Positions 1 to 6,007 of a DNA stretch of 6,007 nt are shown in pieces (the stretch's first letter is position 1; the number at the start of each line of letters is the position of its first letter). The notes under the pieces were generated by a model. The model ran no database searches. It worked only from the letters and a program-made list of their open reading frames with translations, and was not told the origin of the DNA. Position numbers and translations under genes: made by a program. The stretch is from positions 1-6,007 of IMG/VR virus record IMGVR_UViG_3300013939_000005; one strand, given 5' to 3'. The DNA is from a virus.

Positions 1-78
1 GGGAGGGCGCATGAGCGCCCTCTCTTCCATCGCACTGGGAATCGCGCTGCTGCTGGTCTGCGCCACCCTCATTGCCGC
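1..78. repeat. Left copy of an exact 78-nt terminal redundancy (identical to 5930-6007)
   Basis: Base-by-base comparison shows gggagggcgcatgagcgccctctcttcc...ccctcattgccgc at both ends. The repeat is cut off by the window edge, so its true extent is unknown. The period is 5929 bp. Confidence 0.97.
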
Positions 79-208
79 CGCGCTCTGGACCATCGGCGAA
101 GTCATCGACCGATGGAACACTAAGCGCGAAAGGGCGCATCAAGAATTCGTCGCGCAGTGCGCCGCAACGGCAGCGCTGCACAAGGCTCAGCGGGAGCTTT
201 CCGAATGA
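11..208 (+). CDS. Small membrane protein, 65 aa, function unknown (N-terminal TM helix, charged C-terminal tail)
   Basis: GGAGG at 2-6 sits 4 nt upstream of ATG 11. The ATG overlaps the stop of the upstream ORF (ATGA, seen at 5940-5943 in the second copy). Hydrophobic stretch SALSSIALGIALLLVCATLIAAALW is followed by a Lys/Arg/Glu-rich tail. Stop TGA 206-208 overlaps the next ATG. Confidence 0.6.
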   Translation: MSALSSIALGIALLLVCATLIAAALWTIGEVIDRWNTKRERAHQEFVAQCAATAALHKAQRELSE

Positions 209-348
209 GCATTGAAATCGTGCAGTGGGAGGGTGGCGTCTTTCTGGTGGTTATCCGCGAAGCTGGCGAGCAGCAGCGGCGCGTGTTCGTGCCATCCGTG
301 GTAGATGGACTGGACTTCTGCAAGCGCTATCTCCGGGGCGATGCATGA
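205..348 (+). CDS. Hypothetical small protein, 47 aa
   Basis: ATG 205 forms an ATGA overlap with the previous stop. GGGAG at 192-196 lies 8 nt upstream. Third-position GC is about 70% by hand count. Stop 346-348 overlaps the next ATG. The ORF-track start at 157 is rejected in favour of the coupled start. Confidence 0.5.
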   Translation: MSIEIVQWEGGVFLVVIREAGEQQRRVFVPSVVDGLDFCKRYLRGDA

Positions 349-530
349 GCGAACTGCGCTACTGCATTCAGCGCCTCGATGATGGCGTGTGGGTCCACAA
401 ATCGAACTACGGCTCAGACCTCGATACCTGCATGCAGAACGCACGCTGGTTTCAGGCCATGGGTCGTGGTCGTGTTCAATACCGCGTCGTCGCTCAGCTG
501 GGCGATGCGGTTTCGGTGTTGCTGCAATGA
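345..530 (+). CDS. Hypothetical small protein, 61 aa
   Basis: ATG 345 forms an ATGA overlap with the upstream stop, and stop 528-530 overlaps the Rep ATG at 527. It is in frame with track ORF 225-530, but the coupled internal start is preferred. No recognisable motif. Confidence 0.5.
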   Translation: MSELRYCIQRLDDGVWVHKSNYGSDLDTCMQNARWFQAMGRGRVQYRVVAQLGDAVSVLLQ

Positions 531-1282
531 CGTTCGCGGTCGCCACCAGTCAAGCGAGCGCAGCGAGCGCTGGGCTTGTCCATACTGGAACAACTCAGAT
601 GAGAGGGTTCCGCTTCAAGAAAACTATCTCGGATGCCGAACAGCGGGGGAAACGCCTCCGCCGCATGAAACAGAACGTCATTACCTCGGCACGCTTGAAC
701 GTCGAGGAAGCCCAGCAAGGCGGATTCCGTGGCCGCTGGGCGATGCTCACGCTGACCTACCGCGAGGACGTGCGGTGGATAGCGAACCAAGTAGCCGCGC
801 TGCTCGATTGCCTGCGCAAGTATTGCGCCCGCTGCGGCTTCAAAGCCCGTTACGTGTGGGTGCTGGAACTGACGAAGCGGGGCAGGCCGCATTACCACGT
901 GTTGGTGTGGCTCCCGAAAGGTCGCAGCCTGCCCAAGCCCGACAAGCAAGGCTGGTGGAAGCACGGCCTGACCCGCATCGAGTGGGCACGCAACGCCATT
1001 GGCTATCTCGCCAAGTACGCCAGCAAGGGCGATGACTACGACTTGCGCACGCTGCCCGGTGGCGCGCGCCTGTCAGGCAATGGCGGATTGTCCGCGAAAT
1101 CCCGCGTTGAACTGCGTTGGTGGAAGTTGCCCACGTGGGTCCGCGAGGTCTGGAACGAAATCACAAACGTGGGCCGCACCAAAGGCGGCTACGTCAATCG
1201 CGACACCGGCGAATTCCTCGCCAGCCGGTATGCAGTCGCATTCGTTGGCGGGGCACTGTGTCTATACGAGGTCACACCATGA
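527..1282 (+). CDS. Rolling-circle replication initiator (HUH endonuclease, pII-like), about 251 aa
   Basis: HUH motif H-Y-H in RGRPHYHVLVWLP (codons at 890-898). Two-tyrosine motif YLAKYASK (1004-1027) resembles the phiX174 gpA / P2 gpA-type YxxKYxxK active site. It sits immediately upstream of the ssDNA-binding gene. The start is uncertain: ATG 527 (ATGA coupling) is preferred, ATG 599 (MRGFRFKK) is possible, and the track start at 389 is unlikely. Confidence 0.85.
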   Translation: MTFAVATSQASAASAGLVHTGTTQMRGFRFKKTISDAEQRGKRLRRMKQNVITSARLNVEEAQQGGFRGRWAMLTLTYREDVRWIANQVAALLDCLRKYCARCGFKARYVWVLELTKRGRPHYHVLVWLPKGRSLPKPDKQGWWKHGLTRIEWARNAIGYLAKYASKGDDYDLRTLPGGARLSGNGGLSAKSRVELRWWKLPTWVREVWNEITNVGRTKGGYVNRDTGEFLASRYAVAFVGGALCLYEVTP

Positions 1283-1548
1283 GCAATGAAATCATCATCG
1301 AAGTGCGTTCCACCGAACTGACCCGCGTCAAGCCATACAACAACAAAATGTACGGGACGCAGGTCGCCGCCATCTACAACGGCTCCGACTTCCCGCTGCC
1401 CATCAATGTCAACGTGGAGCAGGGGCACGAGTACCCGAAGGGCCGTTACACCATCGACCCGCGCAGCTTCACCCGCGATGACATGGGCAACCTGAAAATC
1501 AAGGGCCTCAAGCTGTTGCCGCTGGGCGGCACGTCGGCCAAGAGCTAA
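1279..1548 (+). CDS. ssDNA-binding protein (pV-like), 89 aa
   Basis: ATGA overlap with the Rep stop. GAGGT at 1268-1272 lies 6 nt upstream. Size and position directly after Rep are typical of inovirus gene V. The protein is small, soluble, and rich in Tyr, Lys and Arg (MSNEIIIEVRSTELTRVKPYNNKMYGTQ...). The call rests on synteny and size, not a diagnostic motif. Confidence 0.65.
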   Translation: MSNEIIIEVRSTELTRVKPYNNKMYGTQVAAIYNGSDFPLPINVNVEQGHEYPKGRYTIDPRSFTRDDMGNLKIKGLKLLPLGGTSAKS

Positions 1549-1551
1549 GCG

Positions 1552-1758
1552 GTGGCCATTCCGCAGGCAGCCCACGTCCTTTACTGCGTCGAGGTCGATG
1601 CAGCCACGCAGACATGTCTGCAACAGGCGTGGCTGCCTGCGCCATCTCTGCTGCCACCTCTTTCCGCGTCGGAGGTGGCGGCGCTTCTCGGTGTTACGGC
1701 TTATGCGTTTGCCATGGCATGGGGAGGCAAATTTCTCGGACGCGTTATCAGAGACTAA
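1552..1758 (+). CDS. Small membrane protein, 68 aa, possible minor virion protein (pVII/pIX position)
   Basis: The only available start is GTG 1552, one codon after the ssb stop and in the same frame. AAGAG at 1540-1544 is a weak SD. The C-terminus SEVAALLGVTAYAFAMAWGGKFLGRVIRD has coat-like acidic / hydrophobic / basic organisation. Stop TAA 1756-1758 lies inside the coat-gene SD. Confidence 0.4.
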   Translation: MAIPQAAHVLYCVEVDAATQTCLQQAWLPAPSLLPPLSASEVAALLGVTAYAFAMAWGGKFLGRVIRD

Positions 1759-1769
1759 GGAGTCGTGTA

Positions 1770-1901
1770 ATGGATGTTGCAGAAGTCGTCACGCTGATTG
1801 CGGGCATCGGTACCGCCGTCGGCCTCATCGGTGCCGCCAAGCTCACCCCCGCTGCCATTTCGGTGGGCTGGAAGTGGGCCAAGGGTGCCATCTTCGGCTA
1901 A
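1770..1901 (+). CDS. Major coat protein (pVIII-like, Pf3-type without a cleavable leader), 43 aa
   Basis: Strong SD AAGGAG (1757-1762) lies 7 nt upstream. Sequence MDVAEVVTLIAGIGTAVGLIGAAKLTPAAISVGWKWAKGAIFG has an acidic N-terminus, a hydrophobic core and a basic/aromatic C-terminus (WKWAK) for DNA contact. A strong terminator follows immediately, as for gene VIII in Ff phages. Confidence 0.8.
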   Translation: MDVAEVVTLIAGIGTAVGLIGAAKLTPAAISVGWKWAKGAIFG

Positions 1902-1915
1902 GCCGGGGCGGGTGA

Positions 1916-1941
1916 GGGGGCCTTCGGGCCCCCTTTTTCTT
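1916..1941 (+). terminator. Rho-independent terminator after the major coat gene
   Basis: Perfect 7-bp GC stem GGGGGCC (1916-1922) / GGCCCCC (1927-1933) with a TTCG tetraloop, followed by TTTTTCTT (1934-1941). Confidence 0.85.
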
Positions 1942-1962
1942 CGGGAGAAATGAAATGTTGGG

Positions 1963-3213
1963 ATGGTACGCGTTATGTGTTGGATTAATGGCGCTCTACA
2001 TTGTGTTCGGCGACTGAGGTCTGCACTTCTCGGGTTGTTGGTGGTGTTAGTGGTGGCATCTGCACACGGTCAGTCTCCGGGAAGCGGAAAAATTGATGTT
2101 ACGCCGCAAACCAATCGATGGGTTAGAGCATCTGGCGGCGGTTTCGAGTCGCATGCATCCGTCATGGCGCGCTATCAGCGTGCGGCCGATGCAGCTGCAC
2201 AGACAACCTATCACCGCGTTCCGGTACAAACATCGGCCGCAACGCTCGGCAGGCTTGCGAAAGGCGGATTGCGTCGCGTAGCGGGGCCGGTGGGCTGGTA
2301 TTTCGTGCTGAAGGATTTGGTAGATGGCGCTGGCTGGGTGATTGACGAATTAGGTCAGCAAGTGATGGATGGTCCGGCGCGAGACCAAGACACCGCGCCT
2401 GCGGGTACACGCATGTGGTGTTCGACCGGTGGGCATGGCTGCGCGCTTACACCGCAAAGCTATTTGAGTTCAGGTCTGTGCACGGCACAGGTTCGCTATA
2501 CCTATCCGAATAACGCGGGCTTGTCCTGCACTTCTATTCTGTCGTGTTCCGGTGACCCGTTGCGTTGTAACTTCCAGCTTTCCGACGGCGGTTCTCACGC
2601 CAAATCTACAACGTTAGTGTCCACGCAGACGCCGGTTTATGGAACAGGGCATGTCCCTCAACCCGTGACAGACCAGCAGCTAGGGGACTTGGTGAAGGGG
2701 AGCCCCGAGGTTGTAAATGCGGTTCTGACGGATCCTCAGACGGGCGCGCCGATTCAGTATCCGGAATTGGTTGATGCCATGAACAACTTGCGTAAGGAAT
2801 TGGAGCAGCAGCGCGGCGCGGAGCCGGGCCCCGACATTGTTCCGAACCCGGATTATGAGAATCAGCCGCAGCCGAGTGAAACGGATTGGCCGGGGTTCTG
2901 TGATTGGGCAACGAAGGTGTGCGAACTGGTGGATTGGGTGATGGAGCCGGAAGAGCCCGAGACGGAAAAGCCTGAGGTTCCGTGGGAAGAGTCAGAGGTT
3001 CAGCCATCAACGTGGACTAGTGGATTGGGCGGCGGTGCATGTCCTGCGCCAATTGGTTTCTCGATTGCTATTGGCGGGCAGACTGCAAATCCTGAGTTCG
3101 ATATGGAGGGAATTTGCTCGTTCGGCTCGATGATTCGGCCACTAGTAATTGCGATTGCGACGGTGGTTGCGGCGTACATTCTTGGCGGCATAAGGAGCAG
3201 CAAAGATGCGTAG
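1963..3213 (+). CDS. Adsorption / minor coat protein (pIII-like), 416 aa
   Basis: N-terminal signal peptide (RRLRSALLGLLVVLVVASAHG/QSP). Cys-rich domain with 6 Cys in aa 153-202 (nt 2419-2568). Pro/Glu-rich linker (nt about 2818-3009, e.g. PEEPETEKPEVPWEESEVQP). C-terminal membrane anchor IRPLVIAIATVVAAYILGG followed by basic RSSKDA. Positioned between coat and pVI-like genes. Start is ATG 1963 or ATG 1975. Confidence 0.75.
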   Translation: MVRVMCWINGALHCVRRLRSALLGLLVVLVVASAHGQSPGSGKIDVTPQTNRWVRASGGGFESHASVMARYQRAADAAAQTTYHRVPVQTSAATLGRLAKGGLRRVAGPVGWYFVLKDLVDGAGWVIDELGQQVMDGPARDQDTAPAGTRMWCSTGGHGCALTPQSYLSSGLCTAQVRYTYPNNAGLSCTSILSCSGDPLRCNFQLSDGGSHAKSTTLVSTQTPVYGTGHVPQPVTDQQLGDLVKGSPEVVNAVLTDPQTGAPIQYPELVDAMNNLRKELEQQRGAEPGPDIVPNPDYENQPQPSETDWPGFCDWATKVCELVDWVMEPEEPETEKPEVPWEESEVQPSTWTSGLGGGACPAPIGFSIAIGGQTANPEFDMEGICSFGSMIRPLVIAIATVVAAYILGGIRSSKDA

Positions 3214-3493
3214 TTGGCTGGCTAATCTTTTGCGCAACCTCTTCGGTGATGCGGTCGCCCGAATTTTCGGCGGTGCGGGTCTGGCGCTGGTGACTTCGGC
3301 GGTCATGATTCCCGTGGTGACAACCGCACTCAATCAAGCAGCGGCAGCCTTCGGCGGAATCCCGGCAGATATTCTCAATGTCGTGCTTCTCTTCGGGTTC
3401 GGTGAAGCCATGTCCATCATTGGCGCGGCCATGCTTACGCGCTTGGCGGTCCAGTCGGCCAATGTCGGCGTTCGGAGGGCCACGCGTCCATGA
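3206..3493 (+). CDS. Minor coat / membrane protein (pVI-like), 95 aa
   Basis: Strong SD AAGGAG (3192-3197) lies 8 nt upstream. There is an 8-nt overlap with the pIII stop. Multiple hydrophobic segments are present (GGAGLALVTSAVMIPVVTTAL, ILNVVLLFGFGEAMSIIGAAML). The position between pIII and the Zot-like gene is the canonical gene VI slot. The stop overlaps the next ATG. Confidence 0.7.
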   Translation: MRSWLANLLRNLFGDAVARIFGGAGLALVTSAVMIPVVTTALNQAAAAFGGIPADILNVVLLFGFGEAMSIIGAAMLTRLAVQSANVGVRRATRP

Positions 3494-4614
3494 TGTTCTT
3501 GATTACCGGGCAACCGGGTAACGGCAAAACTCTGCGCGCCATGTGGGTGATGCAGCAGGAATACGAGCGCAATGCGGCGGCAGTGAAGGCGGGCAAGGAG
3601 CAGTCCCGTCGTTTCTTCTCTAACATTGCTGGTTCAACGGTAGATGAAAATCCGGACGCGTTCCCATGGGTGGAACGGATGCCGGAAGATAATGACTGGA
3701 CGAAACTGCCGGACGGTAGTTTTGTCGTCTACGACGAATGCCACGCTGATGGACAGACGCCGGAGCTTGCGCGCTATGGTGTCTTGTTTCCTTCCACAGG
3801 CAAGCCGGGCGAATCCAGTGACCCGCGAATCCGCGCTATGTCAACGCATCGGCATCGCGGGTTCGACATGGTTTTCATGACGCAATACCCGAACAAGGTT
3901 CATCACAATGTGCGTTCACTGCTGGGTTCGCACACACACATGAATCGTTCGATGGGGCTGGCGGCGGCTGGCGTGCTGACGTGGAGCCGCGTCCAGATTG
4001 ACCCGTATGACGAAAGGCAGCGCGAGAAAGCGGAAGAGGAAATCTGGAAGTATCCCAAGGAGCTATACAAACGCTTTCTGTCATCCAGCCTGCACACGTC
4101 GGCACACAAGTTTAAGGTGCCAAAAAAGGTGTGGGGCGCGCTGTCTACGCTGGTTGCAATCGTGTTTGTCTGCTGGGGTGTGTGGTCGTGGGCGCAGAGC
4201 CGAATTAAGACGGGCGAACGTGCGCCAGAGCAGGCGCGAGGGGAGGCCAGCTTGCTGGCCCCCGCGCCTGCTGCTTCTGTTGAGGAAATTCCTATGGCTG
4301 TAGGGGTAGGGCACGCTACTCAAATCAATACGGTTGCAGTGCCAACACTGGCGGGTGTGGTGGCATCGGAGCGCGGGTGTCGCGCGTTCAACACGGAGGG
4401 ATTTCAAATCGACATGAGCGAGCGCGATTGTCGCCGACTGCTGGAGGCGCCGCTACCGTTCAATGTGTTTCATGAGTTCAAGGCGGCTACGGGTAGTGCC
4501 AGACCGGAGGATTCCAAGTCTGCAAGCGCACCGGTAACCATGTCGTTACCGGGAAACATCACCCATGTCGGCGAAACGGCGAACGTTGTAGAGGCTCCGG
4601 AACCCCACTTTTAA
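3490..4614 (+). CDS. zot: Assembly ATPase, Zot / pI family, 374 aa
   Basis: N-terminal Walker A GQPGNGKT (3508-3531) and Walker B FVVYDECH (3721-3744). Single TM helix WGALSTLVAIVFVCWGVWSWA (about 4132-4194). A roughly 140-aa periplasmic C-terminal domain follows. ATGA overlap with the upstream gene. This architecture is characteristic of inovirus pI / zonula occludens toxin-like proteins. Confidence 0.9.
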   Translation: MMFLITGQPGNGKTLRAMWVMQQEYERNAAAVKAGKEQSRRFFSNIAGSTVDENPDAFPWVERMPEDNDWTKLPDGSFVVYDECHADGQTPELARYGVLFPSTGKPGESSDPRIRAMSTHRHRGFDMVFMTQYPNKVHHNVRSLLGSHTHMNRSMGLAAAGVLTWSRVQIDPYDERQREKAEEEIWKYPKELYKRFLSSSLHTSAHKFKVPKKVWGALSTLVAIVFVCWGVWSWAQSRIKTGERAPEQARGEASLLAPAPAASVEEIPMAVGVGHATQINTVAVPTLAGVVASERGCRAFNTEGFQIDMSERDCRRLLEAPLPFNVFHEFKAATGSARPEDSKSASAPVTMSLPGNITHVGETANVVEAPEPHF

Positions 4615-4662
4615 ATCGCGCAGGTTCGTGGTATCAGAGCGTCCAGTAACCAAGGGCTAAGC

Positions 4663-4860
4663 ATGGACGTTTCTTTCGTGGTGCGTGGTTTTATCGGGTT
4701 GGCGGTGGCTGTCGTGGTGGTTGGCGCGATTGCCGTCATTGTTGCCAAGATGTTCGGCGGTGTGAACAAGCGGCGGCAGAAGGCGGTGGCGCAATTGGTG
4801 TTTGCCGTGGGCATAGTTGCATTCCTGTTCTTCGTGTTCCCGAAGCTACTAGGGGTGTAG
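4663..4860 (+). CDS. Small two-TM membrane protein, 65 aa, function unknown
   Basis: AAGGG (4652-4656) lies 6 nt upstream of ATG 4663. Two hydrophobic helices (FVVRGFIGLAVAVVVVGAIAVIVA and VAQLVFAVGIVAFLFFVF) are separated by the basic loop KMFGGVNKRRQKA. It is the last gene of the + operon, in the post-zot slot. Confidence 0.55.
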   Translation: MDVSFVVRGFIGLAVAVVVVGAIAVIVAKMFGGVNKRRQKAVAQLVFAVGIVAFLFFVFPKLLGV

Positions 4861-4875
4861 GGGCATAGCCCCTAC
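4857..4875. terminator. Perfect 8-bp hairpin between convergent genes; possible bidirectional terminator or ssDNA structural signal
   Basis: GTAGGGGC (4857-4864), loop ATA, GCCCCTAC (4868-4875). It overlaps the TAG stop at 4858-4860 and lies 10 nt from the stop of the minus-strand gene (4885). There is no clear U-tract on either side, so confidence as a terminator is modest. Confidence 0.4.
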
Positions 4876-4884
4876 GGTGACGCT

Positions 4885-5166
4885 TTACCCGGCACGTCTC
4901 CTGGGCATGGGCATGTCGGGCCGGATATGGTCCCGGAGTCGGGTGACGTTGCTGCCACCTTGGATAACCTGCGCCTCACCGCGCTGGACCTGCTCCATCA
5001 ACAGACGCCATTCCCGAGCGATGTTGCAGGTCAGTGACCACCACCGCATGTCCTCGGGATACAGCGTGTAGTTCTCCGGCGTCCACATGTGTCCAGCCTG
5101 AAAACCGAAACCGGCCCAAGGGCCGGTTAGTTCGGTACGGTCGTGAGGGTCAATCAGCTTCTTCAT
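4885..5166 (-). CDS. Trp-rich hypothetical phage protein, 93 aa (possibly a DUF3653-like phage protein; recalled from memory, unverified)
   Basis: GGAGG on the minus strand (complement of 5174-5178) lies 7 nt upstream of the ATG (5166-5164). ATGA overlap with the stop of the upstream repressor-like gene. High third-position GC. Motif LTGPWAGFGFQAGHMWTPENYTLYPEDMRWWSL. Preferred over the antisense + ORF 4877-5071. Confidence 0.6.
   Translation of the reverse strand: MKKLIDPHDRTELTGPWAGFGFQAGHMWTPENYTLYPEDMRWWSLTCNIAREWRLLMEQVQRGEAQVIQGGSNVTRLRDHIRPDMPMPRRRAG
5109..5128. repeat. Perfect 9-bp inverted repeat (hairpin) inside the 93-aa gene
   Basis: AACCGGCCC (5109-5117), AA, GGGCCGGTT (5120-5128). 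On the minus strand it encodes the GPWAG motif. Confidence 0.9.
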
Positions 5167-5645
5167 AGCGGTGCCTCCGTGGCGGCATGGGAAAGCCGCC
5201 TGGGAGGCAAGAGCCGGTCCAACAGCAGTCGCAGCAGGGACCAGTAGTACTGCCAGACCCGCCGAACCGCCCCCATAGCCAATTTCGCATAATGCATAGA
5301 ACGCGCCTGCTCAAAGTCGCCTGTGGCCGCATCAGCGTGTAAGGGCAGGGCAACCAGCACCCCCAGCAATAGGGAGGCAGCGGTTGCGGCCAGCTTGCGC
5401 CATAAGGCCTTCTCTCGCGGGCTGTGCGCGGTTTCCTGTAAGTGGCTGGCAACCGTTGCCCGAATGTCCCAGCCAAGGGCCTGCGCGCAGCCAATTACCG
5501 CGTCCACGTCCATTGACCGAATCCCGGTGACGTAGTTGTTAAACCGGGGTGGCTGTAACCCTGCGAGCCGCGCAAGTCCTGCCTGTGATTCGTTCGGGTA
5601 CTTCTCTTGGAGGGCCTGAATTAGCCGTTCCTGCGTGCTCATCAT
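5163..5645 (-). CDS. HTH DNA-binding regulator (putative immunity repressor) with a central hydrophobic/TM segment, about 160 aa
   Basis: The N-terminus QERLIQALQEKYPNESQAGLARLAGLQPPRFNNYVTG fits a helix-turn-helix (about 5526-5588). Hydrophobic segment AATAASLLLGVLVALPL lies at about 5340-5393. It is divergent from the main promoter and adjacent to repeated operator-like motifs. SD AGGTG (complement of 5649-5653) favours the second Met (5642) as the start. The opposite-strand repressor of about 160-165 aa matches my recollection of Cf1-type Xanthomonas phages, which I could not verify. Confidence 0.75.
   Translation of the reverse strand: MMSTQERLIQALQEKYPNESQAGLARLAGLQPPRFNNYVTGIRSMDVDAVIGCAQALGWDIRATVASHLQETAHSPREKALWRKLAATAASLLLGVLVALPLHADAATGDFEQARSMHYAKLAMGAVRRVWQYYWSLLRLLLDRLLPPRRLSHAATEAPL
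5282..5298 (-). other. dif-like candidate attP core (XerC-arm plus central-region look-alike)
   Basis: The + strand reads ATTTCGCATAA-TGCATA. Compared with E. coli dif GGTGCGCATAA-TGTATA-TTATGTTAAAT, it matches 8/11 in the XerC arm and 5/6 in the central region. The XerD arm is not conserved (2/11). The reverse complement TATGCATTATGCGAA differs at one base from the 15-nt attP/dif core TATACATTATGCGAA that I recall for Xanthomonas filamentous phages (Cf1c, phiLf, XacF1). That recollection needs verification. Confidence 0.5.
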
Positions 5646-5710
5646 TCACACCTGTTGACATTGCATTCACGGGTGTTTATACAGTGCCCAGCATTCACGC
5701 GTGTGAATGC
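5643..5710. promoter_or_regulatory. Operator-like repeats: four copies of CATTCAC around the promoter
   Basis: CATTCAC occurs at 5643-5649 (overlapping the repressor start codons), 5664-5670 (promoter spacer) and 5692-5698. It occurs inverted as GTGAATG at 5703-5709. The last two form the palindrome GCATTCAC-gcgt-GTGAATGC (5691-5710) just downstream of the -10 element. Confidence 0.55.
5655..5683 (+). promoter_or_regulatory. Near-consensus sigma70 promoter for the main + strand operon
   Basis: TTGACA (5655-5660), a 17-nt spacer, then TATACA (5678-5683). It lies in the only sizeable intergenic region, oriented toward the first + ORF at 5776. Confidence 0.7.
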
Positions 5711-5711
5711 G

Positions 5712-5744
5712 CCCCTCCCCGGTCGCCCTTGGCCGGGGCAGGGG
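5712..5744. repeat. GC-rich imperfect hairpin (11 bp, one bulged C) in the leader of the + operon
   Basis: CCCCTCCCCGG (5712-5722) pairs with CCGGGG-C-AGGGG (5733-5744). The loop is TCGCCCTTGG. No T-tract follows. Confidence 0.8.
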
Positions 5745-5748
5745 ACTT

Positions 5749-5764
5749 CAAGGGCACAAGGGCA
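5749..5764. repeat. Perfect tandem 8-mer CAAGGGCA x2, part of a GGGCA-rich repeat cluster
   Basis: CAAGGGCA occurs at 5749-5756 and 5757-5764. GGGCAGGG also occurs at 5736-5743 and 5760-5767. Confidence 0.9.
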
Positions 5765-5775
5765 GGGAACTACCC

Positions 5776-5943
5776 ATGACGCTGGACCAGTGGAATGCGC
5801 TTCAACCGCGCATTGTCGATGTGCAACGCCTCGCCCTGCTGTTCGCCGAACTCGGCGAAAGCAAGGTCAGCTACCTGCTAATGCAGGCCGCCACGCGCGC
5901 CGCCCGCATCAAGCCGGTGAAGGAAGCAGGGGAGGGCGCATGA
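5776..5943 (+). CDS. Small protein in the Cro position, 55 aa, possible HTH
   Basis: First ORF downstream of the promoter. AGGGA (5764-5768) lies 7 nt upstream of ATG 5776. The segment LFAELGESKVSYLLMQAATR loosely fits an HTH pattern. The stop overlaps the next ATG (ATGA 5940-5943). The track start ATG 5707 lies in the operator palindrome without an SD and is considered less likely. Confidence 0.5.
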   Translation: MTLDQWNALQPRIVDVQRLALLFAELGESKVSYLLMQAATRAARIKPVKEAGEGA

Positions 5944-6007
5944 GCGCCCTCTCTTCCATCGCACTGGGAATCGCGCTGCTGCTGGTCTGCGCCACCCTCA
6001 TTGCCGC
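5930..6007. repeat. Right copy of the exact 78-nt terminal redundancy (identical to 1-78)
   Basis: Same comparison as for the left copy. This fits circular-genome wrap-around or the start of a second tandem unit. Confidence 0.97.
5940..6007 (+). CDS. Second (partial) copy of the 65-aa membrane protein gene seen at 11-208
   Basis: Identical to nt 11-78 and truncated by the window end. It shows that the gene at 11 is translationally coupled to 5776-5943 across the circular junction. Confidence 0.6.
   Translation, partial: MSALSSIALGIALLLVCATLIA

Follow-up and report, generated by a model that had tools for sequence, protein, structure and literature searches.

Integration at dif is a well-known lifestyle of filamentous phages. 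The classes of integrative mobile elements exploiting Xer (IMEXs) have been described together with the tandem-dependent production of CTXphi (PMC4246890). In phages of the phiLf type, attP lies inside the repressor gene; in phiLf-UK, the annotated xerC/D site sits beside PSB15 in a DUF3693 gene homologous to the regulator gene described below. Nucleotides 303-315 of phiLf-UK fall within its experimentally mapped ori SL2 (bioRxiv 10.1101/2023.12.30.573655), and the WAGFXF motif of PSB15 has been described as well (bioRxiv 10.1101/2024.03.19.585677). For phiSHP2, ORF1 and ORF2 are RstA and RstB according to a preprint.

The window analyzed here, that is, the whole stretch of 6,007 nt under study, is one complete filamentous phage genome of 5,929 bp with 14 genes, of the Inoviridae type and temperate. 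The phage is new but of an ordinary kind. We are highly confident that this inovirus unit is complete and dif-integrating and that its closure stems from a real attP-type junction; this confidence concerns the unit and its junction, and the physical presence of a tandem is weighed separately.

Closure and gene content of the unit

The two ends of the window carry the same sequence, as the original prediction had noted:

1..78, no strand: first copy of the terminal overlap, exactly identical to 5930-6007; the identity runs past both window ends in Ga0117790_1000037
5930..6007, no strand: second copy of the terminal overlap and start of unit 2, exactly identical to 1-78

Within the 6,007-nt window, 78 is the sole length at which prefix and suffix coincide, and the chance of such an end identity is ~1e-45. 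The window has a period of 5929 bp, and the repeat is indeed limited only by the window edges. The window is an internal stretch (positions 6512-12518, 100% identity) of the metagenomic JGI contig Ga0117790_1000037 (78,290 bp), in which the end identity carries on for 648 nt to the left of nt 1 and for 5220 nt to the right of nt 6007. The 78 nt are therefore merely the window length (6007) minus the period (5929), a cutting artifact of the tandem period that is no att repeat and has no biological meaning. Phage rather than host DNA adjoins nt 1 on the left, and beyond nt 6007 the sequence proceeds as from nt 79 onward up to 5298, without diverging into host genes there; both results favor the original prediction. 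Its observation that no host-like DNA is visible anywhere holds inside the window, which contains none, but not just outside it, where host DNA is present.

The continuity of reading frames through the join, noted there as well, was confirmed: orfA spans 5929/5930, and its stop overlaps the start of orfB in an ATGA (5940-5943, equal to bases 11-14) that serves as the loop of a hairpin at 3-22 with an 8-bp stem. Further ATGA start/stop overlaps lie at 205, 345, 527, 1279, and 3490; the minus strand has one at 5163-5166. The coding density of the 14-gene model is 95.3%, with noncoding gaps of 3, 11, 61, 48, 24, and 130 nt. Its genes are as follows:

5776..5943, plus strand: orfA, 55 aa, first gene of the rightward operon (phrog_31802; 55-aa gene call in public assemblies)
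11..208, plus strand: orfB, 65 aa, predicted N-terminal membrane helix; start overlaps the orfA stop (ATGA)
205..348, plus strand: orfC, 47 aa, ATGA-coupled; homologue in L034, 48% identical
345..530, plus strand: orfD, 61 aa, ATGA-coupled; homologues in Stenotrophomonas prophages L006 and L007, 46-47% identical
527..1282, plus strand: rolling-circle replication initiator (pII-like), 251 aa (PF23343, E=2.8e-32; phrog_2969, E=1.4e-59)
1279..1548, plus strand: ssDNA-binding protein (pV-like), 89 aa (PF02303, E=9.3e-10)
1552..1758, plus strand: orf68, small and hydrophobic, in the pVII/pIX position (phrog_4644 and phrog_9110, ~2.5e-7; 38% identical to phiSHP2 ORF63)
1770..1901, plus strand: major coat protein, 43 aa, without leader peptide (PF05356 Coat B, E=9.6e-7; 56% identical to phiSHP2 ORF45)
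1963..3213, plus strand: pIII-like adsorption/minor coat protein, 416 aa, with signal peptide and C-terminal membrane anchor (phrog_19149, E=7e-69)
3206..3493, plus strand: pVI-like minor coat protein, 95 aa (PF10734 DUF2523, E=4.9e-11)
3490..4614, plus strand: Zot/pI-like assembly ATPase, 374 aa (PF05707, E=3.5e-16, above gathering score; aa 1-234 66% identical to phiSHP2 Zot)
4663..4860, plus strand: orf65, small, two predicted membrane helices (Pfam matches sub-threshold only)
4885..5166, minus strand: PSB15 homologue (packaging-signal-binding protein), 93 aa (WAGFGF at aa 17-22; phrog_2188, E=2.8e-30; weak DUF3653 match)
5163..5645, minus strand: HTH/DUF3693 repressor-type regulator, 160 aa (PF12472, E=1e-8; phrog_638, transcriptional regulator)

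The Zot ATPase, the hydrophobic coat with pVI- and pIII-like proteins, and the HUH Rep with a pV-type protein argue for an Inoviridae-type phage (Tubulavirales). The claim of a complete 5,929-bp inovirus unit was borne out by the Pfam matches of Rep, the pV-like ssDNA-binding protein, Coat B, DUF2523 (pVI-like), and Zot. The size, which had been placed at the small end for filamentous phages, is small but unexceptional beside phiSHP2 (5,819 bp), Pf3 (5,833 bp), and phiLf-UK (6,062 bp). In the sequence of Rep we read an HUH motif (HYHVLV) and YLAKYASK with two tyrosines; public gene calls take an alternative start at 599, yielding 227 aa. The coat protein scored 29.2 bits for PF05356 (cutoff, 23.5), and the pIII-like protein is 44% identical to phiSHP2 ORF328 in its C terminus and 35% identical over its full length to a protein of the S. 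humi prophage. The product of orf68 is probably a minor virion protein; orfB had no family match in Pfam or PHROGs. The structural order of coat, gIII, gVI, and gI is that of phiSHP2 and phiLf-UK, and no pIV gene is present. With its N-terminal WAGFXF motif and its homology to phiLf-UK ORF9/PSB15 (locus 5091-5294; aa 13-82 49% identical), the 93-aa protein belongs to the PSB15 family, with a putative role in DNA binding.

Candidate signals were located at these sites:

556..583, plus strand: candidate plus-strand origin, hairpin AGCGC-AGCGA-GCGCT then GGGCTTGTCCAT, CTTG recognition/nick motif as in phiLf
1914..1945, plus strand: intrinsic-terminator-like hairpin and T-run behind the coat gene (fold z=-3.0)
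4857..4875, no strand: hairpin GTAGGGGC-ATA-GCCCCTAC between the convergent orf65 and orf93 (PSB15 homologue), from folding
5646..5775, no strand: divergent control region with operator-like half-sites, promoter-like site, and GC-rich hairpin

The first of these contains a 13-nt exact match to phiLf-UK nt 303-315, of which 12 nt are kept in L034, and we infer an origin function for 556-583. The hairpin at 4857-4875 is a candidate bidirectional terminator or cis-acting site; in the prophage region of S. humi, its conservation is 97-100%, although the genes on either side are only ~65-75% identical. A control function of 5646-5775 is suggested by the operator-like half-site GCATTCAC at 5663, at 5691, and inverted at 5703 (3 observed versus 0.33 expected), a promoter-like TTGACA-17-TATACA read from the sequence at 5655-5683, and a GC-rich hairpin at 5712-5745 with a strong fold (z=-4.8). 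A search for a hairpin matching the Xanthomonas PS consensus was negative.

Junctions with the host chromosome

The source contig contains exactly two units in head-to-tail orientation, identical at all 5929 positions and flanked by host genes. Closure had been ascribed to a circle, an assembler wrap-around, or a head-to-tail tandem, and the contig as assembled agrees with the third option. From left to right, host DNA and attL (XerC arm, center, and phage arm) precede unit 1, an attP-type junction separates it from unit 2, and attR (complete dif) leads back into host DNA; the three core copies have a successive spacing of exactly 5929 bp. The unit holds a single site of this kind:

5282..5309, plus strand: attP, with XerC arm ATTTCGCATAA, center TGCATA, and degenerate XerD arm GAACGCGCCTG; three junctions in the 78-kb contig

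On the left, phage sequence begins at the att core, while unit 2 corresponds to window positions 1-5298 at 100% and is then followed by host DNA. A 17-bp core is common to all three junctions, and the right arm is exchanged with the host TTATGTAAAAG, which places the crossover within or at the end of 5282-5298. The left end of the array is a hybrid site, and the right end is a complete dif. Compared with the host dif, attP agrees at 17 of 17 positions of the XerC arm and center (ATTTCGCATAA-TGCATA) and at 3 of 11 in the XerD arm; the host dif itself (28-bp attR) shares 22 of 28 positions with E. coli dif. KOPS-like GGGNAGGG motifs converge on the site, albeit in small numbers (left, 2 forward and 0 reverse; right, 1 forward and 6 reverse), and GC skew, computed over the short flanks, was uninformative.

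Searches of the 14 ORFs against Pfam, and of most of them against PHROGs (orfC, ssb, coat, g6, and Zot against Pfam only), detected no integrase or recombinase in the unit. No tRNA was found, and the 95% coding density leaves no space for a further gene. A tyrosine integrase gene 1.3 kb outside the array lies in a neighboring island and is not part of the unit. These features suggest that the phage is an integrase-less IMEX that integrates at the chromosomal dif via host XerC/XerD. Its attP layout, with XerC arm and center as in dif and a degenerate XerD arm, appears closest to that of the TLC type and the phiLf phages. Judging from the flank proteins, which group with Pseudoxanthomonas spp. 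at at least 90% identity, the host is a Pseudoxanthomonas-like bacterium. In L011, a related host contig, dif is adjoined by the same right flank; no empty attB of this host was recovered.

The attP junction, and with it the closure of the unit, is present in two assemblies, Ga0117790_1000037 and the independent Logan assembly of eel-mucus run SRR1578068. The Logan contig comprises the unit plus 30 nt (k-1) and includes the attP junction. It breaks off precisely at position 5298, the attR branch point (chance of coincidence, 1 in 5929), and forms a closed cycle that passes the attL merge point (start at 5269, not 5281), ignoring the attL in-branch. An intact repressor gene across attP is on record only on contig Ga0117790_1000037.

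Tandem prophage or free circles, and a proposed life cycle

We lean slightly towards the dimer being physically present in one chromosome. A substantial possibility, which we nonetheless rate below even chances, is that each chromosome carries a single dif-integrated prophage accompanied by a free circular RF and that the assembler threaded the attP junction into an apparent exact dimer. The 5929/5929 identity of the copies is what one sequence traversed twice would give, the dimer is the shortest (minimal de Bruijn) path taking in the attL, attP, and attR edges, Illumina or 454 short reads make up the eel-mucus data sets, and the relatives in S. humi are single-copy. However, this account assumes that JGI sample 3300014042 is a short-read assembly and that it is the eel data set, a recent second integration would likewise give identical copies, and tandem Xer-integrated filamentous prophages are common (PMC4246890). 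The closed Logan cycle suggests more attP reads than host-junction reads in SRR1578068, but low host coverage combined with tip-clipping accounts for it equally well. A single prophage with RF is a variant nested within our best explanation and not exclusive of it: like a physical tandem, it implies that the attP junction is real and that the unit is complete and closable.

It is very improbable, in contrast, that the phage is a purely episomal circle that never integrated, with the host flanks of the 78-kb contig due to a mis-join and the overlap to a circle or wrap-around. The self-closing Logan contig with its k-1 overlap and the lack of host DNA in the window would fit such a circle, but it is largely refuted by the position of both host junctions exactly at the 17-bp dif-type core, with a reciprocal arm swap as in site-specific recombination, and by the canonical 28-bp dif recreated at the right junction. 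The same geometry in the isolate genome of S. humi DSM 18929, the right flank beside dif in L011, and the Logan break at the attR branch point speak against it as well. Direct repeats at both ends commonly mark mobile elements, and the original prediction had named a short att-type repeat as the alternative that would overturn it; we rejected this reading of the 78 nt, as flanking a single integrated element, and consider its probability negligible: the 78 nt belong to coding sequence (orfA/orfB), their identity extends past both window ends in the source contig, and the true att core lies at 5282-5298, a dif-like site of 17 bp.

For a dif-integrating phage of this kind, XerC/XerD would, by homology, catalyze recombination between the 28-bp attP (5282-5309) and dif. 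The HUH Rep would drive rolling-circle replication from the origin at ~556-583; with two tandem copies, it could nick the ori of unit 1 and terminate at that of unit 2, giving a unit-length circle without excision, in a CTXphi-like manner. Packaging would proceed via the PSB15 homologue, and export via Zot through a host secretin, which is proposed because a pIV gene is absent. The DUF3693 repressor may control lysogeny through the GCATTCAC repeats.

As attP occupies repressor codons 116-122 (SMHYAKL), only a sequence that runs through an attP junction, in the circle or between tandem copies, encodes the regulator at its full 160 aa. A solitary prophage would encode a hybrid repressor with its last ~38 residues host-side, here a 178-aa hybrid with an unrelated tail. 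The tail-encoding stretch (5207-5298) is 82-89% conserved in otherwise unalignable relatives, and since this tail is exchanged on integration, the swap could give the phage a built-in readout of its integration state or its copy number and so shift it between silent lysogeny and virion production. We consider this role unlikely, if conceivable; no discussion of it was found in the consulted papers on these phages and Xer integration.

Comparison with known filamentous phages

By its similarities, the genome is a mosaic, with a structural module akin to that of Stenotrophomonas phiSHP2 and a module of Rep, origin, PSB15, and repressor/attP akin to that of Xanthomonas phiLf. With the phiLf group (phiLf, phiLf-UK, Cf1c, and XacF1; Lophivirus and relatives), it shares the plus-strand order of rep, ssb, small protein, coat, gIII, gVI, and gI, the minus-strand PSB15 followed by a DUF3693/HTH regulator, the ~6-kb genome without a pIV gene, and attP in the 3' part of the regulator gene, encoding (S)-I/M-H-Y-A. 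The 15-bp core TTCGCATAATG-N-ATA is one base different, and the degenerate arm is similar (GAAGGTGCCG in the phiLf type versus GAACGCGCCTG here). Rep is 41% identical to the C-terminal 250 aa of phiLf-UK pII, PSB15 is 49% identical with WAGFXF, and the ori 13-mer is identical to the mapped ori. In contrast, coat, gIII, gVI, and Zot have no similarity to phiLf-UK detectable by tblastn, Rep lacks the N-terminal ~95 aa of pII, with four small ATGA-coupled ORFs upstream instead, and the PSB15 homologue has 93 aa rather than 108. The center is TGCATA, as in the phage's own host dif, and not TGTATA, and the host is Pseudoxanthomonas-like. Genome-wide similarity to Lophivirus (phiLf-UK) is absent, with only Rep and PSB15 detected by tblastn and no megablast match; the module layout is shared.

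The best nucleotide match is phiSHP2 (Siphunculivirus SHP2), which has the same size and overall order and homologues of the Zot N terminus (66% identical), coat (56%), pVI-like protein (44%), orf68 (38%), gIII C terminus (44%), and PSB15-like protein (58%). However, just 14% of the genome aligns, at 70.5% identity, and with homologues for 6 of 14 proteins (38-66%) the similarity falls short of the genus level; Rep, ssb, and repressor have no tblastn similarity, and phiSHP2 contains no dif-like core even with 2 mismatches allowed. Prophages of S. humi DSM 18929 (L006), a Stenotrophomonas MAG (L007), and IMG/VR UViG 2713896756_000002 have homologues of gIII, gVI, coat, orf68, and orfD and encode a Zot that is 65% identical. 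The S. humi prophage likewise lies between a hybrid attL and dif, its repressor 3' end abuts the core, and the 4857-4875 hairpin is kept, but it is a 7.5-kb, single-copy unit with dif center TGTATA. The Stenotrophomonas prophages have another replication module (no Rep match), and nucleotide similarity to them is confined to ~0.8 kb.

Sequence homology to the V. cholerae IMEXs (CTXphi, VGJphi, and TLCphi) is limited to the dif-like site and generic inovirus genes, and attP is a single double-stranded site rather than the folded ssDNA attP(+) of CTXphi. What the phage has in common with them is the lack of an integrase, the proposed use of XerC/XerD at dif, the regeneration of a functional dif on one side, and, as assembled, tandem arrays (PMC4246890). 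Tandem copies, which allow rolling-circle production of CTXphi from the chromosome, may do so here as well, and an attP with identical XerC arm and center and a degenerate XerD arm is also that of the TLC type (PMC4246890).

A closed unit within an assembled, host-flanked array

The first 78 nt of the window are exactly identical to nt 5930-6007, and 78 is the only length at which a prefix of the window equals its suffix, which gives a period of 5,929 bp. A chance identity over 78 nt has a probability of ~1e-45. This comparison confirmed the original prediction of identical ends bounding a 5,929-bp unit. The unit has a G+C content of 59.5%, and its GC skew is positive over most of the plus strand. 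Using an exact-protein look-up of Zot, we traced the unit to the 78,290-bp contig Ga0117790_1000037 (JGI sample 3300014042; referred to here as L002) and to a 5,959-bp Logan contig, SRR1578068_12583. On the JGI contig, all phage genes except the regulator are called twice, in the same order and with host genes on either side.

BLAST placed the entire window at L002 6512-12518 with 100% identity (record positions 13894-19900, reverse strand). A second match aligned window 1-5298 with L002 12441-17738, again at 100%, with complete divergence beyond, and the phage sequence on the left of the array starts at the same short core. This core, ATTTCGCATAATGCATA, occurs three times in L002 (5864, 11793, and 17722) with a spacing of exactly 5,929 bp each, and the two units of the dimer are identical at 5,929 of 5,929 positions. 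Among indexed public assemblies, only this contig has an intact regulator gene (160 aa) extending across the internal junction. We conclude that the window was cut from inside the L002 dimer. The overlap of 78 nt is just the difference between 6007 and 5929 and has no biological meaning, so that the idea of a short att-type direct repeat can be dropped. Among the sources of closure proposed earlier, a head-to-tail tandem prophage is the one supported as assembled, and past nt 6007 the sequence goes on as in the window from nt 79 to 5298 before host DNA is reached. The orfA/orfB junction had no exact match in IMG/VR, indicating that the window is not an IMG/VR DTR contig. For genome scans, the lesson is that a self-closing window may have been cut from within a tandem or unrolled prophage, in which case the overlap length is biologically uninformative.

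From the ORF list, family searches, and public gene calls we built a model of 14 genes, which covers 95.3% of the circle.

Genes of the 5,929-bp unit (window coordinates, strand, description)
5776-5943, plus, orfA, reads across the 5929/5930 join
11-208, plus, orfB
205-348, plus, orfC
345-530, plus, orfD
527-1282, plus, rep (PF23343, E = 2.8e-32), alternative start at 599 in public gene calls
1279-1548, plus, ssb (PF02303)
1552-1758, plus, orf68 (phrog_4644)
1770-1901, plus, coat protein of 43 aa (PF05356)
1963-3213, plus, gIII-like gene (phrog_19149)
3206-3493, plus, gVI-like gene (DUF2523)
3490-4614, plus, zot (PF05707)
4663-4860, plus, orf65
4885-5166, minus, orf93
5163-5645, minus, DUF3693/HTH regulator

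This coverage, together with the family matches, bears out the earlier description of a nearly fully coding unit with recognizable core functions. Reading frames do run through the join, as had been noticed, with orfA crossing 5929/5930 and sharing an ATGA start/stop overlap with orfB at 5940-5943 (bases 11-14). The same type of overlap links orfB/orfC, orfC/orfD, orfD/rep, rep/ssb, and gVI/zot on the plus strand as well as the regulator and orf93 on the minus strand. At window 3-22 (5932-5951), the orfA-stop/orfB-start overlap forms the loop of a perfect, GC-rich hairpin of 8 bp (GAGGGCGC-ATGA-GCGCCCTC), which may affect translational coupling of the two genes. The start of rep is ambiguous: ATG 527, which is ATGA-coupled to orfD, gives 251 aa, and ATG 599 gives 227 aa. 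Family searches found no secretin or recombinase among the ORFs of the unit, which also contains no tRNA. The unit had been placed at the small end of known filamentous phages; it is indeed small at 5.9 kb but not exceptional compared with phiSHP2 (5,819 bp), Pf3 (5,833 bp), Ralstonia phage YO182_1 (5,909 bp), and phiLf-UK (6,062 bp).

Host, dif-type junctions, and copy number

No nucleotide similarity was seen between the host flanks and the loci of Stenotrophomonas humi DSM 18929 and a Stenotrophomonas metagenome-assembled genome (MAG), so that we took the host identity from protein clusters. Of the five flank proteins, four (ArsH, ACR3, DUF2306, and a 428-aa hypothetical protein) belong to clusters at 90% identity in which nearly every named member comes from Pseudoxanthomonas (P. 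japonensis, P. beigongshangi, and spp. PXM04, z9, and 22568); the remaining one, AdhP, groups with Xanthomonas and Stenotrophomonas. The right flank has a G+C content of 66%. This right flank recurs at 92-99% identity on a second metagenome contig, L011, beside the same dif, with the end of a different, related phage on the other side. SRR1578068 derives from the skin mucus of European eels, a metagenome with abundant Stenotrophomonas-like Gammaproteobacteria (PMC4223461, PMC4310352).

Junctions of the array in L002
attL: host...ATTTCGCATAA TGCATA GAACGCGCCTG...phage
Internal junction (attP, window 5282-5309): phage...ATTTCGCATAA TGCATA GAACGCGCCTG...phage
attR: phage...ATTTCGCATAA TGCATA TTATGTAAAAG...host

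The 28-mer at attR matches Escherichia coli dif at 22 of 28 positions and is organized into an 11-bp XerC arm, a 6-bp center, and an 11-bp XerD arm. Compared with this host site, attP is identical in the XerC arm and center (17/17) and matches 3 of 11 positions in the XerD arm. Judged by sequence, this is the reciprocal arm swap expected of site-specific recombination between attP and dif, and the reconstructed attB reads H_left + ATTTCGCATAATGCATATTATGTAAAAG + H_right, where H_left and H_right are the host DNA on either side of the array. KOPS-type motifs (GGGNAGGG) converge on the site, with two forward and none reverse on the left and one forward and six reverse on the right, although these numbers are small; the GC skew of the host flanks, which are short, is flat and uninformative. 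A scan of metagenomes with the host-type dif returned neither an empty attB for this host nor a free circular contig; a contig of 5,929 bp (L052) was rejected as a free circle, being unrelated to the phage.

Several further features surround these sites. The ~45-55 nt left of the attL core (L002 5809-5863) are ~70% identical to phage 5237-5281, the regulator tail, with a 1-nt indel, and are probably left over from an earlier, related element integrated by Xer. Window 5207-5298, which takes in the att core and the sequence just to its left, has 82-89% identity to three metagenomic relatives (L011, L040, and L056) that are otherwise unalignable with the unit, implying that the regulator tail or an accessory arm of attP is probably under constraint. 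Another junction type, AATTTCGCATAATGCATA followed by GGCAAG(T/A)GAAAA(G/C)G, is present in eight metagenome contigs (L017, L026, L027, L033, L038, L051, L053, and L055) and looks like the attL or attP of another recurrent element that exploits Xer through the same dif variant. To the left of the array, L002 1-5721 holds a defense-type island abutting the dif region, with a SAVED/2TM effector and a DncV-like nucleotidyltransferase (CBASS-like), a BrxR-type WYL regulator, a tyrosine integrase, and a DUF2971 gene. As the junctions are of the dif type and this integrase is encoded outside the repeated unit, it was rejected as the integration enzyme.

As to copy number, we lean slightly toward a physical tandem dimer. 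There is an appreciable, if less than even, probability that a single prophage coexisted with free replicative-form (RF) circles and that a de Bruijn assembler unrolled them into a dimer, given that an exact dimer with 100% identical copies is the shortest path using the attL, attP, and attR edges. The Logan contig (k = 31) comprises the unit plus 30 nt, starting at 5269 and ending at 5298, and so closes into a cycle whose cut falls precisely at the branch point between attP and attR. The attP junction lies within this contig, which also passes through the would-be attL merge point (5281), suggesting that host junctions are minority paths in SRR1578068; however, low host coverage would yield the same Logan result. 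The favored tandem and the prophage-plus-circle reading both imply integration at dif and a genuine, closable unit.

Candidate cis-acting elements and a proposed life cycle

Window 571-583 (TGGGCTTGTCCAT) is identical to phiLf-UK nt 303-315, which lie within a stem-loop with the CTTG recognition sequence and nick site of an experimentally mapped origin. A short GC hairpin precedes the motif in both phages, and 12 of its 13 positions are kept in L034, a metagenomic prophage with a related Rep. We infer that 556-583 is a candidate plus-strand origin. A rep start at 599 would put this hairpin and nick motif in a 68-nt intergenic gap.

A hairpin with a T-run (1914-1945) lies 3' of the coat gene. 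The 130-nt divergent region 5646-5775 contains three GCATTCAC half-sites versus 0.33 expected, a TTGACA-17-TATACA promoter-like site, and a strong fold (z = -4.8). Between the convergent genes, the hairpin 4857-4875 (GTAGGGGC-ATA-GCCCCTAC) is 97-100% kept in the S. humi region, where it occurs twice, in both orientations, and where the flanking genes are only ~65-75% identical; it is 89% kept in the MAG, again far above the flanking genes. The hairpin may act in cis, for example as a terminator, packaging signal, or minus-strand origin. With its 3-nt loop and different sequence, it was rejected as a Xanthomonas-type packaging signal. A search of the unit for that signal as GGX(A/-)CCG(C/T)G with a 7-8-bp stem and a 6-10-nt loop found no convincing hairpin, and the sole consensus match, at 1138 inside rep, was discarded because it is not in one.

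These elements can be arranged into a putative life cycle. After infection, single-stranded DNA would be converted to the RF, and XerC/XerD would recombine attP with dif. In the attP of TLCphi, the XerC arm and center are identical to dif and the XerD arm is degenerate (PMC4246890); this layout is seen here and also in phiLf phages. Recombination would regenerate a functional dif on the right, at which a second copy could integrate to produce a tandem array. Integration would also split the regulator gene, with attL keeping codons 1-122 fused to host-side DNA (a 178-aa hybrid in L002) and the full-length gene existing only across an attP junction. From tandem copies, Rep could nick the origin of unit 1 and terminate at that of unit 2, releasing a unit circle without excision, as shown for CTXphi in work cited in PMC4246890; excision by recombination between attL and attR is also conceivable. 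PSB15 (orf93) and Zot, together with a host secretin, would then assemble and export virions.

Relatives and modular exchange

No match to the unit was found by megablast among 50,697 phage records. In sensitive blastn, the best match was Stenotrophomonas phage phiSHP2, with 14% of the genome aligned at 70.5% identity. At the protein level, the two share Zot (66%, aa 1-234), the coat protein (56%), the gVI-like protein (44%), orf68 (38%), the gIII C terminus (44%), and orf93 (58%), but not Rep, ssb, or the regulator, and the dif core was not found in phiSHP2. For Rep, similarity is instead to phiLf-UK, with 41% identity to the C-terminal 250 aa of pII, and orf93 has 49% identity to ORF9 of that phage. 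The latter is PSB15, a genetically identified packaging-signal-binding protein with a WAGFXF DNA-binding motif (bioRxiv 10.1101/2024.03.19.585677), which occurs in orf93 as WAGFGF. Furthermore, the annotated xerC/D site of phiLf-UK (5393-5407) falls within its DUF3693/HTH gene, directly upstream of PSB15, an arrangement shared with the window, and both att sites have a similar degenerate arm and encode an I/M-H-Y-A peptide. The core of the window's phage differs from the Xanthomonas core, TATACATTATGCGAA (bioRxiv 10.1101/2023.12.30.573655), by one central base, at which it matches the dif of its host.

Among 185,579 species-representative genomes scanned, two relatives with 65% Zot identity were retrieved, in S. 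humi DSM 18929 and the Stenotrophomonas MAG, and IMG/VR contained one relative. The S. humi prophage is a single 7.5-kb copy whose left boundary is ATTTCGCATAA TGTATA AACGGTGCAGC and whose right boundary is ATTTCGCATAA TGTATA TTATGTCAACG, with the 3' end of its regulator gene abutting the core. Phage-like DNA in inverted orientation is also found right of dif in this locus (L006 11964-19300), including a PSB15-like gene (12076-12243, plus) and a Zot-like gene (14832-14227, minus), and a 1.39-kb inverted repeat joins 6343-7730 and 17601-18986 at 86% identity. Directional Xer integration would not yield such an arrangement, which may reflect two prophages having recombined to invert the DNA across the terminus. 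L034 (Ga0055531_10001543, 8169-9487) lies beside a TGCATA-type dif and resembles the window in Rep (69%), ssb (52%), and rep nucleotide sequence (77%), but its Zot is only 28% identical, a pattern that provides further evidence that replication and structural modules are probably exchanged independently.

Genome-wide similarity fails for both Siphunculivirus and Lophivirus, so that the phage represents a new species and probably a new genus. No described Pseudoxanthomonas inovirus appeared among the top-ranked matches of a library search, which was not exhaustive. The current understanding of inoviruses and of Xer-mediated integration is unchanged by this element, which adds one complete genome with exact boundaries for the small integrative filamentous phages, from the host genus Pseudoxanthomonas. 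By its protein similarities, it is a mosaic member of the integrative filamentous phages of Xanthomonas and Stenotrophomonas, displaying exchange between a phiSHP2-like structural module and a phiLf-like module for replication, packaging, and lysogeny.
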